From a virus (Duplodnaviria > Heunggongvirae > Uroviricota > Caudoviricetes): a stretch of DNA of 6,597 bases. Shown here in pieces: positions 944 through 4,260 of the stretch (within the stretch, counting starts at the first letter, position 1; every line of letters begins with the position of its first letter). The stretch is taken from the IMG/VR virus record IMGVR_UViG_2740892442_000003; one strand, written 5' to 3'. The notes beneath the pieces were generated by a model that did not search any database, was not told the origin of the DNA, and saw nothing but the letters and a program-made list of their open reading frames with translations. A program made the position numbers and the translations under genes.

Positions 944-2605
944 TTATATGAAAAAAACCGCATATTCTTTCTTTTTCGGTTCCGGGTTAAGGGACATCAG
1001 GGAGACCGCATTGAACAGCGCCATCAGCGGGTCAATTTTTCCCCGTCCACTGGCCTGTTTGGTGATAAGAATGGCGTTACCTTTAGGCTCCACCCGGGCA
1101 TTGCCGACACACCAGGCCATCAGGGGCTGGTCACCATGCACCAGCACCCCTTCAGCCAGTTTGCGCTCGGTGGTTTTAATGGCCCCGCCCAGTTTCCAGC
1201 CCTGGCTTATCCCCACCACAATTCCGTCGGGGATCCCGGCTTCCGCCAGTGAATCCAGAATCTGCCCCACCCCTGACGGGTCAATACCGATATGGTCCAG
1301 TAACTCAGCCTCATGAATGCGACGCACATATTCCGCCACTTCCGCCGTGTCATCCCCGACACGCCGGACAATGGTCATATCTCCACAGGCAACAAGATCC
1401 TGAAACCGGGACGCCTCGCTCTTCCGTCGGACCACCGCGGTTTCATGCGCCCAGGCATGGCCCCAGCCCAGCCATTCGCGGGTCTCCCGGTCACGCCCAA
1501 TCACATACATCCCCAGCAGATCATCCAGCCCTCCGCCGTCAATCCCCACCGTCACCACATCAGCACGACGCAGGATATCGTCCAGGCTGATACAACGGCC
1601 CTGCTCTTCCCAGAAATCAGCCCCCGCCCAGCGGTCAGAGCGCAGGGCAAGACCAATTTCCACATTGGCGTGTTTTGACATGAACCCCCGGAATGTCTCT
1701 TCACCGGCTTCCCGGGCTTTACGGTACTCCCGGTACAGAAAGGCCTCATCCACTGAATAGCCGAGATTCGGATTGACCATGGCGAGGTTTTCCATCAGCA
1801 GGTTAGCCCCGCTTTCCACCATTTCAGGAGGGTGTTCAAATATCACCGGCAGAAAGTGCGGATCATGAATTTTGCCGTCGCGCACATCCCGGGCGTACTG
1901 CAGTTTCTGTCTGAACACCCCGGCGGGCGGTTCATTCGACTGGGTGGTCGTATACACCACAAACCCTTCCGGGCGGGAGGCAAGGCCGCCTATGGCTTCA
2001 CGTAACATGTCCTCCGCCTTGCACTGCTTGCCAAACAGCCACAACTCATCAATCAGCGTACCCACGGACTTGATACCGGACACCGTATTCGGATCGGCTG
2101 CCACCACCTTCAGGGTGGTGTCCGTCACTCGGTGGGTGATGGTCCGGATATGGGTCTGTACCTGGCAGAGGTCATCCAGATCATCGTCACGTCGTACCAT
2201 ATCCCGGGCAGGGTTGAAGGCGTTGGCCGCCACCTCCACAGTCGGGGCCAGAATCGTGTAACCCGCCGCCTGCCGCCAGTTCAGTAACAGTGCAGTCATC
2301 ATGATCCCCGCGGCCAGCGTGGACTTCGAGTTTTTCTTGGGGATAAGGATAAAAACTTCCTTGATATGGCGTACACCGGTCTGCGCATCGTAGGAGCCAA
2401 ACAGGGCCGCCACCAGGTCAAACACCCACGGTGCACAGGACTCCCCGAACGTAGGGCTACCAGGTGCATCCACAATCCGCAGTTGTTTAAAAATCGCCAG
2501 GGCATGTGCGGCCTCGTCCGGATAAATCGGATCCGGAATAATCGACAGCCCCTTTTTCAGGCGCTCTGCCCAGTCCGGGCAGGCTGTGCTCCATACAGGT
2601 ATCAT
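944..2605 (-). CDS. Terminase large subunit (HK97 gp2-type, Terminase_1 family)
   Basis: 553-aa ORF with terminase-like ATPase and nuclease regions (VGIDGGG..., DQPLMAWCVGNA..., KIDPLMALFNAVSLM). Start ATG overlaps the TerS stop as ATGA. Confidence 0.9.
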   Translation of the reverse strand: MIPVWSTACPDWAERLKKGLSIIPDPIYPDEAAHALAIFKQLRIVDAPGSPTFGESCAPWVFDLVAALFGSYDAQTGVRHIKEVFILIPKKNSKSTLAAGIMMTALLLNWRQAAGYTILAPTVEVAANAFNPARDMVRRDDDLDDLCQVQTHIRTITHRVTDTTLKVVAADPNTVSGIKSVGTLIDELWLFGKQCKAEDMLREAIGGLASRPEGFVVYTTTQSNEPPAGVFRQKLQYARDVRDGKIHDPHFLPVIFEHPPEMVESGANLLMENLAMVNPNLGYSVDEAFLYREYRKAREAGEETFRGFMSKHANVEIGLALRSDRWAGADFWEEQGRCISLDDILRRADVVTVGIDGGGLDDLLGMYVIGRDRETREWLGWGHAWAHETAVVRRKSEASRFQDLVACGDMTIVRRVGDDTAEVAEYVRRIHEAELLDHIGIDPSGVGQILDSLAEAGIPDGIVVGISQGWKLGGAIKTTERKLAEGVLVHGDQPLMAWCVGNARVEPKGNAILITKQASGRGKIDPLMALFNAVSLMSLNPEPKKKEYAVFFI

Positions 2606-3231
2606 CCGTTGCCCTCATTATCGTTATTCACCACCAGTCGGGGGGGCGGTGGCACCGCAAAACGGTTAGCCGCTTTTTTCGCGGCATCACCTTTTGCCGA
2701 TTTTTTCCCGGTATCCCCTTTTTTATGGTGCGTGAACTGCGCCAGACGCCAGGCCGCATCCAGTGCCAGTTTCGGATCAATGCAGAGGTTTTCCACCAGG
2801 ATCCGCCCCATGGCTTTCACCGGATCGGGAAGACCATCCTCCATATATTCAATACCAGGAGACATCACCGCGGACGGTGGCATCTCCAGATTGTTTTCGT
2901 CCGGCTGTGGTATTGCAGCCGCCTCACGGCGACGGGGTTTATCCTCCTGCTCTGATTTTTTCTGCCGGTAAACAGGAACCTCATCCACCTCCACCGTCTC
3001 GCATTGTTTACGGGCTATAAACGCAAGCACCTCAGGATCTTTTGCCAGCTGCGAGCCTTTAACCCTGGCGGTCTTCGCCGAATAACCGGCGGCAATGGCT
3101 GACGCTGTTTTGTTTTTCCCGGACATGAGCGCCAGCGCAAATTTTCGTTTTTGCGTTGTCAGCACAGCCTCCTCCCGGGTCCAGAACGCACTCAGCCGGG
3201 TATGGTTCAGCCATTTTTCCCGGCGTCTCAT
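2602..3231 (-). CDS. Terminase small subunit (P27 / Terminase_2 type)
   Basis: 209-aa ORF; N-terminal LTTQKRKFALALMSGKNKTASAIAAGYSAKTARVKGSQLAKDPEV matches the helix-turn-helix region typical of P27-family small terminases. Sits directly upstream of, and coupled to, TerL. Confidence 0.8.
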   Translation of the reverse strand: MRRREKWLNHTRLSAFWTREEAVLTTQKRKFALALMSGKNKTASAIAAGYSAKTARVKGSQLAKDPEVLAFIARKQCETVEVDEVPVYRQKKSEQEDKPRRREAAAIPQPDENNLEMPPSAVMSPGIEYMEDGLPDPVKAMGRILVENLCIDPKLALDAAWRLAQFTHHKKGDTGKKSAKGDAAKKAANRFAVPPPPRLVVNNDNEGNG

Positions 3232-3238
3232 GCCGCAA

Positions 3239-3362
3239 ATGTTAACTGCTGCCTGGTTAACATTTGCTGAAAAAGCCTGTTAACATTTTTTCCGCACAAC
3301 AAACTGAATAATAAAGATAAAAACCGCAAAAATGCCCGGGCAGCCAGTTAACATGTTAACTG
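3239..3362. promoter_or_regulatory. Cluster of five GTTAAC-core 10-bp repeats (CAGTTAACAT / ATGTTAACTG), candidate cosB-like terminase binding sites
   Basis: GTTAAC at 3241, 3256, 3279, 3347 and 3355. 3239-3263 is an inverted repeat with a 9-bp spacer; 3345-3362 (CAGTTAACATGTTAACTG) is a perfect 18-bp palindrome. Lies between HNH and TerS, where the cos site sits in HK97-like phages. Confidence 0.4.
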
Positions 3363-3454
3363 CCCTGAAACGGGAATTTTTTCTCTGCGTGAGAGGGGGC
3401 GCGGTGTCCAAAGCGATCGTTTTTTACGCCGGATGATACCCCCCCCGGGTTGGG

Positions 3455-3820
3455 TTACAGTCCGATGATGTCGTCCTCTCTGCCACTACCTCCGGACACC
3501 TCCGGCAGCGTCGGGTCCGGCATACCACTCGCCGCTTCACGAGCAGACTTTTGTCGATGGCATTCGGTACAGAGCGTCCAGAGATTCGTCTCCTCATTAC
3601 CACCACCGAACTGAAGTGCAATTCGGTGATCGAGTTCACTGTCACAGAGGTCAACCACACGACCACAGAGACGGCACTGCCCGGCGTCCCTGAGCCAGAT
3701 ATGACGCTTGAGGGAAACACGTGCACTGCCACTGACACGACGCTGTTCACCCTTCAGAATATTCACCCGTCGGGTATTCAGTGTTTTGATTCTGCTCTGG
3801 AGTGTACGAAGCTCAGCCAT
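3455..3820 (-). CDS. HNH endonuclease (terminase-associated)
   Basis: 121-aa ORF with Cys/His HNH motif CRLCGRVVD...ELDHRIALQFGGGNEETNLWTLCTECHRQK. GGGGA RBS 6 nt upstream of the ATG. Position upstream of TerS is typical of cos-packaging HK97-like phages. Confidence 0.85.
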   Translation of the reverse strand: MAELRTLQSRIKTLNTRRVNILKGEQRRVSGSARVSLKRHIWLRDAGQCRLCGRVVDLCDSELDHRIALQFGGGNEETNLWTLCTECHRQKSAREAASGMPDPTLPEVSGGSGREDDIIGL

Positions 3821-3861
3821 GTAAAATCCCCGTCATATGGCAATCAGTAAAGGAAATAAAT

Positions 3862-4062
3862 ATGTCATCGAAAAACCGTACCCGCAGAACCACAACCCGC
3901 AATATCCGTTTCCCCAATCACATAATTGAACAGATCAACATCGCCCTTGAGCATAAAGGGTCCGGTAACTTTTCAGCGTGGGTTATTGAAGCCTGCAGGA
4001 GAAGGCTGGCAACAGATGCAACGCATCTGCGCCCGGCCAGCATGACAAATAACGAGAAATGA
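3862..4062 (+). CDS. Small ribbon-helix-helix-like protein (YlcI/YnfO-type prophage ORF, DUF3950-like; family assignment from memory)
   Basis: 66-aa ORF from the internal ATG at 3862 with AAGGA RBS (track ORF begins further upstream at a GTG). MSSKNRTRRTTTRNIRFPNHIIEQINIALEHKGSGNFSAWVIEACRRRL has a strand-helix-helix pattern. Divergent from HNH across a 41-bp spacer. Confidence 0.65.
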   Translation: MSSKNRTRRTTTRNIRFPNHIIEQINIALEHKGSGNFSAWVIEACRRRLATDATHLRPASMTNNEK

Positions 4063-4260
4063 ACGTTCGGTTTCTTCCACCATCGCACCGGACAGGCGAC
4101 TATGAGGGGACAACGCCGCGCTCCGTTAACGCGGTAAACCCCGGTGTGTATCGTTTTTGATTATCCCCGCACACTCGCGCAGAGGAGTCTCCCTGTCGGG
4201 CTGCGGTCTCTGTTAATGCAGGAATACGGCGACAATACCGCGCATGGATAATAAGGTCGC

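Follow-up and report, generated by a model that had tools for sequence, protein, structure and literature searches.

A predicted HK97-type cos site with repeated putative small-terminase boxes in a BP-4795-like lambdoid prophage

A 6,597-nucleotide stretch of IMG/VR virus record IMGVR_UViG_2740892442_000003, here called the window, carries the late region of a lambdoid Escherichia coli prophage of the BP-4795/1717/2851/YYZ-2008 type, which comprises long-tailed Shiga toxin (Stx)-converting phages and their non-toxigenic relatives. The genes lie on the minus strand in the order lysozyme, Rz/Rz1, HNH endonuclease, a non-coding spacer, small terminase (TerS), large terminase (TerL) and an S78 prohead protease, and the functional order around the spacer is therefore HNH, a run of G residues, the cut site, a series of short boxes and TerS. 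We consider it probable that this spacer (3166-3454, minus strand) serves the prophage, which is BP-4795/1717/2851-like, as its cos (cohesive-end) site, in which TerS would dock on the boxes. A packaging site with cosN and cosB parts had been raised for this place in an earlier note on the DNA, which left operators for a small ribbon-helix-helix-like protein as the alternative; the packaging layout is the one favored here, with the mapped ends of relatives falling in the GC-rich block of the spacer and the boxes standing at fixed offsets and following the TerS family.

The HNH endonuclease gene (3455-3820, minus strand) is the last gene before cos and matches Pfam HNH (PF01844, 3.7e-08) and phrog_589; its counterparts in BP-4795, 1717 and 2851 carry an HNH endonuclease annotation. 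The TerS gene (2602-3165, minus strand) encodes a protein of the Pfam Terminase_2 type (PF03592, 35.7 bits against a cut-off of 26.1; phrog_641) with an N-terminal helix-turn-helix region, and the TerL gene (944-2605, minus strand) an HK97-like protein with Pfam TerL_ATPase and TerL_nuclease matches and a match to HK97 TerL (6Z6D, 9.4e-10). NCBIfam has no model for the TerS or TerL of the window. There are 96 phage records that match a 1.7-kb stretch around the spacer, at identities of 90-99.5%.

The spacer is longer than the 223 bp assigned to it at first. A 209-codon TerS reading frame opening at ATG 3231 exists in the window only, and that ATG is in frame with TerS because the window is without one G near 3211; positions 3210-3213 (sense ...AAAAATGG-CTGAACC) are one G short relative to the nine close relatives aligned there, and the best E. 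coli genome matches are likewise one base longer than the window near 3211. Either a genuine mutation or a sequencing error, the G run being short, may explain the missing G. TerS of the relatives is annotated as 187 amino acids, and the start is probably GTG 3165-3163, behind the Shine-Dalgarno sequence GGGAGGAGG (3168-3176); read from there, the N-terminus MLTTQKRKF aligns with MLTAQKRKF of distant homologues. With this start the non-coding stretch is 3166-3454, or 289 bp. The leader directly before the TerS start (3166-3234, minus strand) is the most conserved part of the spacer, with 1% variable columns against 19% at TerS third codon positions, and its RNA fold is unremarkable (z = -0.85). 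In relatives the leader overlaps a 59-codon open reading frame of another frame.

Five copies of a 10-bp motif had been described in the spacer, and all five lie where they were placed, although only three are exact. The 10-mer CAGTTAACAT occurs without mismatch at 3239-3248 (minus), 3345-3354 (plus) and 3353-3362 (minus), with one mismatch at 3277-3286 and with two at 3254-3263, and at up to two mismatches its eight matches in the whole window against 4.3 expected are not significant. The unit common to all five is the 8-mer GTTAACAT, exact in each copy, for which 0.006 occurrences are expected in the spacer; none of 5000 dinucleotide-preserving shuffles of the spacer contains five or more. 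Its GTTAAC hexamer is present five times in 120 bp against 1.2 copies expected over the whole 6.6-kb window. Two of the boxes, 3355-3360 and 3347-3352, together form the perfect 18-bp palindrome CAGTTAACATGTTAACTG (3345-3362), which was noted correctly, as were the GC-rich block GAGGGGGCGCGGTGTCC at 3393-3409 and a run of eight C residues at 3439-3446.

Two larger symmetries had been overlooked. A 33-bp dyad (3235-3267) consists of GCAAATGTTAAC and GTTAACATTTGC separated by 9 nt, with 12-nt arms that are 100% complementary and that contain boxes D (3256-3263) and E (3239-3246); as RNA it folds into a 12-bp hairpin (z = -4.3) without a U tail. The palindrome also has outer arms, AAAAATGCCCG (3328-3338) and CGGGAATTTTT (3371-3381), returned by a repeat finder as a larger imperfect dyad (3328-3381) whose RNA fold is ordinary (z = -1.3). 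Box C (3279-3286, plus strand) is an exact GTTAACAT, and it lies 68 bp from the copy at 3347. A linker rich in T and A tracts (3287-3344, minus strand; T5 tracts at +62 and +71, A6 at +103, offsets being counted from the predicted top-strand nick given below) separates box C from the palindrome and has 5% variable columns. No intrinsic terminator was found in a scan of 3000-4200, and the 18-bp palindrome is therefore not a terminator; the integration host factor (IHF) consensus has no match in the spacer at up to one mismatch. When the entire window was compared with Rfam at E up to 1, a single chance small nucleolar RNA match elsewhere was returned, and the spacer matches no described RNA family.

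The place of the cut can be predicted from two relatives whose virion ends have been mapped. For Stx1 phage Lys8385Vzw, PhageTerm gave the cos type and the 3' cohesive ends CGCCCCCCCT, and the available text of that report gives the 10-nt end only and does not mention the boxes, the G-run or a TerS site (PMC7946995). The spacer of Lys8385Vzw is near-identical to that of the window, and its sequence record is cut exactly inside the homologous GC-rich block, ending ...GGACACCGCCCCCCCT and starting CTCACGCAGAGAAAAAATTCCCG... (opening CTCACGCAGAGAAAAAATTCCCGTTTCAGGGCAGTTAACATGTTAAC); at the same junction the minus strand of the window reads ...GGACACCGCGCCCCCT CTCACGCAGAGAAAAAATTCCCGTTTCAGGGCAGTTAACATGTTAAC, and one overhang base differs from Lys8385Vzw. 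The 10-nt 3' ends CGCCCCCCAT of Acinetobacter phage fEg-Aba01 were determined with PhageTerm and a gel test with heating and annealing (PMC7354433). Its record ends GGACAC-CGCCCCCCAT, annotated as a 3' cohesive end, and starts CGCACGCACAAAAAAAATTCCC, so that the register equals that of the window, and the helix-turn-helix region of its TerS is common to TerS of the window. By homology in register with these two ends, the window is predicted to have the 10-nt 3' cohesive end CGCGCCCCCT in the sense direction (3394-3403, minus strand), the top strand being nicked at 3394/3393 and the bottom strand at 3404/3403. The GC-rich block encloses this predicted end, so the proposal that it is the cohesive-end region is supported, but the likeness to lambda suggested for it is not, the predicted overhang being a 3' one of the HK97 type. 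As far as the available account of Lys8385Vzw goes, both relatives have cos ends at the homologous position, which speaks against headful packaging.

A cosN-like cleavage core, GGACAC / CGCGCCCCCT / CTCACGC in the sense direction (3387-3409, minus strand), is conserved from E. coli phages to those of Acinetobacter and Burkholderia, and in the window it equals the cores of the mapped relatives except for one or two overhang bases. The right part of the core, an A6TT-CCCG block at +12 to +23 (3371-3382, minus strand), is nearly invariant across genera and is common to loci with different TerS families, which diverge only after about +25. Among the matches listed, a diverged subfamily includes two viral contigs whose first base is +1 of CTCACGC. 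Three cohesive-end variants occur in the E. coli family, CGCGCCCCCT (the window, YYZ-2008 and WGPS6), CGCCCCCCCT and CGCCCCCCGT, and across genera the overhang is far more variable (for example CACCTGTTCC and CGACTAGCAA) while both flanks are conserved; it seems to be the flanks, and not the overhang itself, that the nucleases read. A literature search for the overhang 10-mers returned unrelated papers only.

The flanks themselves differ in a manner that may bear on which nuclease reads which side. In the hexamer at -16 to -11 (loci L093-L111), immediately 5' of the presumed bottom-strand nick, GGACAC is present in 13 of the 14 loci with an HNH protein 61-68% identical to that of the window (L107 has CGACAC), and four loci with an HNH protein 31-38% identical have CGAAAC or GGCTAC instead; CTCACGC, 3' of the top-strand nick, is nearly constant across the same loci. 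This hints that HNH reads the left side of the cut and TerL the right side, a pattern that plain linkage could explain.

Two sets of relatives were used to examine the boxes more widely. The first comprises 20 distant prophages from 13 genera, obtained by scanning species-representative genomes with a small TerS alignment, in which TerS is 38-57% identical over the best segment. The second was assembled from viral contigs that match the invariant right half of the site (at least 120 contigs, about 80 non-redundant sites). A scan of IMG/VR with the TerS protein gave near-identical relatives only (93-99%), and it serves for conservation, not for diversity. A common layout is seen in 19 of the 20 distant prophages, with a G-run at -49 to -54, GGACACCGC.CCCCCT / CTCACGC.CAGAAAAAATTCCCC around the cut, GT(A/T)AAC at +33 to +36 and GTTAAC at +41 or +42. 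The remaining one is a diverged Acinetobacter contig in which the G-run, GGACACCGC and an A-tract are retained but the cut-site pattern was not matched. The conservation across related prophages that the earlier note had proposed as a check is thus found, with boxes kept in prophages of at least 13 genera.

In most of the distant relatives the ATG of ATGTTAAC is the TerS start (ATG TTA ACA, Met-Leu-Thr), with the Shine-Dalgarno sequence GGAGGG ahead of it. The start of TerS lies farther downstream in Proteus, one Pantoea prophage and fEg-Aba01, yet GTTAAC or GTTAAA is kept at +34 to +36 and further copies of the box lie 10-13 bp apart; the box is thus more than a side effect of coding and counts as a DNA signal. 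A third box (GTAAAC or GTTAAC) stands at exactly -34 in Salmonella phage SP-016 and in 12 of the 19 distant prophages. The window has a degenerate form of it (sense GTAAAA; 3422-3427, minus strand), and in BP-4795 and Lys8385Vzw the box is lost. Among the matches listed, in about 80 non-redundant sites, GTWAAC is nearly confined to -34 (16 occurrences), +33 to +36 (29), +41/+42 (30) and +50 (6). The distance from box C to the copy at 3347 in the window equals the spacing of the -34 and +34 boxes.

The type of box also follows the type of TerS. Among the matches listed, a GTWAA[C/T] box lies at +29 to +57 in all 77 contigs with a Terminase_2-like TerS. Four other loci among these matches (L126, L194, L128 and L233) share the left half and the core to about +24 but continue into a different small-terminase-like gene (MPRGGARPG... 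or MAGVKGRSGG...), and they have GAATTCAA motifs in place of a GTWAAC box. The motifs of this second type are GAATTCAAT or GAATTCAAA, together with GGAATCAAA in L126 and L194, and they lie at about +37 to +85; they are candidate recognition boxes of the other type of TerS. On comparison of these sequences a natural swap appears to have occurred, in which the cut-site core goes with TerL and HNH and the segment beyond about +25 goes with TerS.

Conservation among close relatives is strong across the whole interval. In 64 unique relatives, counting a column as variable when the minor allele is present in at least three sequences, 10 of the 228 columns from +1 to the TerS start vary, against 36 of 188 TerS third positions (Fisher p = 2.5e-6) and, at HNH third positions, 34 of 121 (p = 7e-10), which points to purifying selection. 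Not one of the 42 box columns varies, those of box C included, and the 18-bp palindrome is likewise invariant.

The comparison also accounts for the length of the spacer in the E. coli family. A TerS-like start was located in 74 viral contigs among the matches listed, and 58 of them have it at +39 to +41, versus +229 in the window. The region of the old start is now the 18-bp palindrome, which reads CAGGGCAGTTAACATGTTAACTGG in the window versus GGAGGGTGTAAACATGTTAACAGC in distant relatives and holds a relic of the ancestral TerS start codon, ATG 3354-3352. About 190 bp follow the old start that are not in the distant relatives, and these consist of the T/A-tract linker, the three boxes C, D and E (hexamers at +110, +133 and +148) and the leader; the linker is missing from SP-016 and from the distant loci. 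The relic ATG 3354 opens a 24-codon hydrophobic open reading frame, MLTGCPGIFAVFIFIIQFVVRKKC (3280-3354, minus strand), whose stop codon lies within box C. It is intact in 59 of the 64 unique relatives and truncated or frameshifted in five, with three synonymous and three non-synonymous variable sites.

Upstream of the cut, the C8 run of the plus strand is part of a G-run element, sense GGGGGGGG-TATCATCC (3431-3446, minus strand; -53 to -38). A G-run is always present in relatives, with a length of G7-G12 that differs between close relatives, and in some 80 non-redundant sites of the family, among the matches listed, the runs gather at -48 to -56. In HK97 a G9 run followed by ATCAAATCT, and in SfV a G-rich block followed by TCAAATCT, sit at the same distance from the cut, so that a G-run and then (A)TCA, some 42-53 nt ahead of the cut, is seen in the window family (G6-G12), in HK97 (GGGGGGGGGATCAAATCT) and in SfV (GGGGAGGGGCGGGTCAAATCT). 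We also note that TCAAATCT lies at -41 to -34 in both HK97 (L012, right end) and SfV (L120, right end). The G-run/ATCA element may be a further cos subsite in the window family, HK97 and SfV, and apparently a new one; the two HK97 packaging papers searched gave no match to the search terms for a G-run. By analogy it may be the counterpart of lambda cosQ.

A plausible scenario for the working of the site starts from TerS, whose N-terminal helix-turn-helix would dock on the GTTAAC(AT) boxes at +34 and +42 and on the upstream box where there is one; in the E. coli family it would also dock on the extra boxes at +110, +133 and +148. That the GTWAAC boxes are TerS docking sites is the most likely reading of them, because their distances to the cut are fixed and their presence follows the type of TerS. 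Docked TerS would place TerL at the cut and set the direction of packaging toward terS and terL, and the HK97-like TerL, aided by the adjacent HNH, would nick the strands 10 nt apart and so leave the 3' overhang CGCGCCCCCT, the nuclease pair reading the core GGACAC...CTCACGC...AGAAAAAATTCCCG. At the next cos the motor would come from the HNH side and meet the G-run first, and the G-run/ATCA element, about 45-53 nt upstream, may act on the arrival of the motor at the genome end, as lambda cosQ does. The observations beneath this scenario are the homology in register with two mapped 3' ends, the conservation of the site, the fixed positions of the boxes and the change of box type with TerS family. 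We infer from them which protein goes with which element, which nuclease is assigned to which strand and the role of the G-run.

Several points weigh against this account. The ends were mapped in virions of relatives, with placement in the window by homology; both determinations used PhageTerm, one with gel support and the other briefly reported; and the contigs that start at +1, among the matches listed, belong to a subfamily with a different downstream gene. The pairing of TerS with the boxes rests on comparison across the family. The TerS start codon of most relatives is overlapped by the +42 box, with the +34 box situated between it and the Shine-Dalgarno sequence, so that part of their conservation could reflect translation initiation, and the three extra boxes are confined to the E. 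coli family, so that the covariation between families is silent on them. The boxes are spaced at 8, 68, 23 and 15 bp, with no simple helical phasing. As to the kinship with HK97, gp1 belongs to phrog_5601 and shows no similarity to the window TerS of Terminase_2 and phrog_641 (BLASTP E = 0.3), and the pairwise similarity between gp74 and the window HNH is not significant.

Of the other explanations, the one that survives best, though we regard it as unlikely, is that the three TerS-proximal boxes and the 33-bp dyad act in expression, as a terS hairpin or autoregulatory site or as an antisense promoter. A sigma-70-like site on the plus strand, TTAACA-18-TAACAT with an upstream TG, is built of boxes D and C, but it matches at 9 of 12 positions and 0.8 such sites are expected by chance in the scanned region. 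The 12-bp hairpin of the dyad (z = -4.3) would suit such a role, yet it is a mere consequence of two inverted boxes, it has no U tail, and position 3266 in the stem varies in nine unique sequences with no compensating change. The leader is the most conserved stretch, but its fold is ordinary (z = -0.85). A box over the TerS start codon, as in most relatives, would let TerS repress its own translation; an expression role of this kind is compatible with TerS binding and would be an added layer. The promoter-like site, the hairpin and the 24-codon reading frame are features of the sequence that could each come on top of packaging.

Slightly less likely still is that the extra boxes are evolutionary debris, left by duplication and insertion at the ancestral TerS start (ATG TTA AC), and that only the core and the +34 and +42 boxes matter. 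The repeat unit is indeed the ancestral TerS start codon region, and a pair of 16-nt repeats with a spacing of 68 bp points to a duplication. In SP-016, and in no fewer than 58 further members of the family, TerS starts at +39 to +41 and extra boxes are absent, and the extra copies are therefore not needed by the family as a whole. Against decay, the inserted stretch varies 4-6 times less than neighboring synonymous sites, every base of the extra boxes is invariant in the 64 unique relatives, and two of the extra copies form a perfect dyad with 12-nt arms, which is not expected to survive chance decay.

Short inverted and direct repeats are typical operators of ribbon-helix-helix proteins, and the GTTAACAT repeats could on that ground serve transcription and not packaging, as operators for a DUF3950 (YlcI/YnfO) protein, the ribbon-helix-helix-like protein of the earlier note. 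Its gene (3862-4062, plus strand) lies within 500 bp of the repeats, but the entire HNH gene separates them from its start, and a promoter-like site at 3732-3760 is closer to it than they are. The two also occur apart. None of the 20 distant loci, which keep the +34 and +42 boxes, has a DUF3950 gene within 1.5 kb upstream, whereas HNH is there in 17 of the 20; the lambda DUF3950 protein is 86% identical to that of the window (residues 1-52), yet the terminal 1855 bp of lambda have no GTTAAC; and PhiR42_1, with a 76% identical DUF3950 protein and a lambda-type Nu1/A terminase, has no GTTAACAT within 2.5 kb on either side. With boxes present without DUF3950 and DUF3950 present without boxes, the operator proposal becomes very improbable. 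Hardly credible at all is headful (pac) packaging as in SPP1 and SF6 with the region as a pac site without defined ends, for although the window TerS belongs to Pfam Terminase_2 and has weak solved-structure matches to the small-terminase chains 2CMP, 3ZQP and 4ZC3, which we take to be SF6-type pac TerS, defined 10-nt 3' ends are known at the homologous position from two relatives, the only solved-structure match of TerL is HK97 TerL, and the HNH gene adjoins the terminase genes as in HK97.

Returning to a cos site with TerS boxes, we put forward, tentatively and with somewhat less than even confidence, that the spacer is a hybrid signal. An HK97-type, HNH-dependent cut site common to several TerS families would be joined at about +25 to an exchangeable TerS module, which in the Terminase_2 version has GTWAAC boxes on both sides of the cut, one of them doubling as the TerS start codon. 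In the Stx lineage about 190 bp would have been gained, with the old start kept as a DNA signal and three boxes added under strong constraint, and the G-run/ATCA element would be a further subsite. The cohesive end of one family member has already been reported, and the existence and place of a cos site were to be expected; the box architecture, the displaced start codon and the G-run common to HK97 and SfV seem not to have been described before.

Knowledge of the exact cut and of the likely TerS boxes would show annotators the start of the virion chromosome, and the start codon of TerS is corrected at the same time. A fragment from about -60 to +160 is also defined for tests of packaging, cos-plasmid transduction or satellite hijacking in Stx phages. 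The structural papers on HK97 leave open which protein reads which part of cos (PMC11331095, PMC9410871), and the natural swaps of TerS modules on a constant cut site provide material for asking this of HK97-type sites.

Among the various other features of these loci, the cos module is present in 1279 of 5426 complete E. coli genomes (about a quarter), in up to eight copies per genome, and it is also found in many Shiga-toxin phages. PPompW prophages of O157 strains contain a defective variant of the module, in which the IS110-family element ISEc20 lies inside the cos G-run (L010, 2791-4249, PPompW_132418, corresponding to about 3442 in the window); the upstream HNH and lysis genes are gone and tRNA genes and Q lie next to it. 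One IMG/VR relative (L074, 1501-2208) has a TerS with an internal tandem duplication of 49 residues (PEVLAFIARK...DENN repeated). The DUF3950 gene lies antisense in the late operon just upstream of cos in both the window and lambda, and in lambda the 86% identical protein is encoded about 200 bp from the right end, although the packaging modules of the two are unrelated.

Comparison with known packaging systems begins with the closest relatives, Lys8385Vzw, BP-4795, 1717, 2851 and YYZ-2008, which are of the same family, with spacers 90-99% identical and the same boxes and core. The Acinetobacter phages fEg-Aba01, fLi-Aba02 and fLi-Aba03 have the homologous core GGACAC-CGCCCCCCAT / CGCACGCACAAAAAAAATTCCC and a G6 run at -51 (PMC7354433). 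Like the window they have repeated GTTAA motifs from +34, but these take the form of AAGTTAAA repeated directly at +32, +45 and +56, at intervals of 11-13 bp, and not of inverted GTTAAC; their TerS starts at +73 and has low similarity outside the helix-turn-helix region. SfI, SfV and e14 were considered as carriers of the same module and rejected, having a different cos (TGCCCGCCCC) and a different module.

The logic of the lambda site is similar, in that binding sites for the small terminase, repeated and separated by A/T-rich DNA, follow the cut on the side of the small-terminase gene and a conserved element precedes it upstream. The parts differ, lambda having a 12-nt 5' overhang, an IHF site between the R sites of cosB, no HNH, unrelated terminase proteins (gpNu1/gpA) and terminal 1855 bp without any GTTAAC. 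A lambda-type cos for the window is contradicted by the 3' overhangs of the relatives, the Terminase_2/HK97-like terminase and the lack of an IHF consensus. References for lambda cosQ are cited in PMC11331095, and a paper on the prophages of O157 Sakai mentions lambda-type cos of Sp4 and Sp14 only. SPP1 and SF6 G1P belong to the same Pfam family, Terminase_2, as TerS of the window. The pacL and pacR boxes of SPP1 flank pacC, much as the -34 and +34 boxes flank the cut in most members of the window family. SPP1 is nevertheless a headful packager without cohesive ends or an HNH partner, whereas the ends in the window family are defined and TerL is HK97-like.

HK97 provides the nearest model for the cut site. 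Its gene order, HNH-cos-terS-terL, is that of the window and of 17 of the 20 distant loci, and its TerL (6Z6D, 9.4e-10) is the sole solved-structure match of the window TerL, with gp2 23% identical over 489 residues (BLASTP E = 2e-11). For the 3' overhang of HK97 the papers mostly state 10 nt, although PMC9410871 has 12 nt in one place; the TerS site of HK97, beside an A-tract, occupies +15 to +29 on the terS side of the cut, and the HNH protein gp74 stimulates cos cleavage (PMC11331095, PMC9410871). Both systems would thus have 10-nt 3' overhangs (that of the window as predicted from its relatives) and a TerS site between the cut and terS. The two cos regions also resemble each other weakly: when they are anchored at the cut, 45 of 130 positions are identical against 32.7 +/- 4.8 in shuffled sequences, 17 of 2000 shuffles reaching 45, and the identities concentrate in the G-run and ATCA about 42-53 nt upstream, in ACCGCC at -12 to -7 and in the A/T tract beside CCCG downstream. 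The two part beyond the cut, where HK97 has a single TerS site at +15 to +29 and 49 nt from cut to TerS, and the window has repeated GTWAAC boxes at +34 and +42 (and -34) and a distance of 229 nt. On these sequence comparisons the site in the window is of the HK97 type, with its predicted 10-nt 3' overhang, HNH association and HK97-like TerL, and not of the lambda type; given the different TerS family and signal, the type of cos would be what the window has in common with HK97, and the TerS and cosB module what sets it apart.

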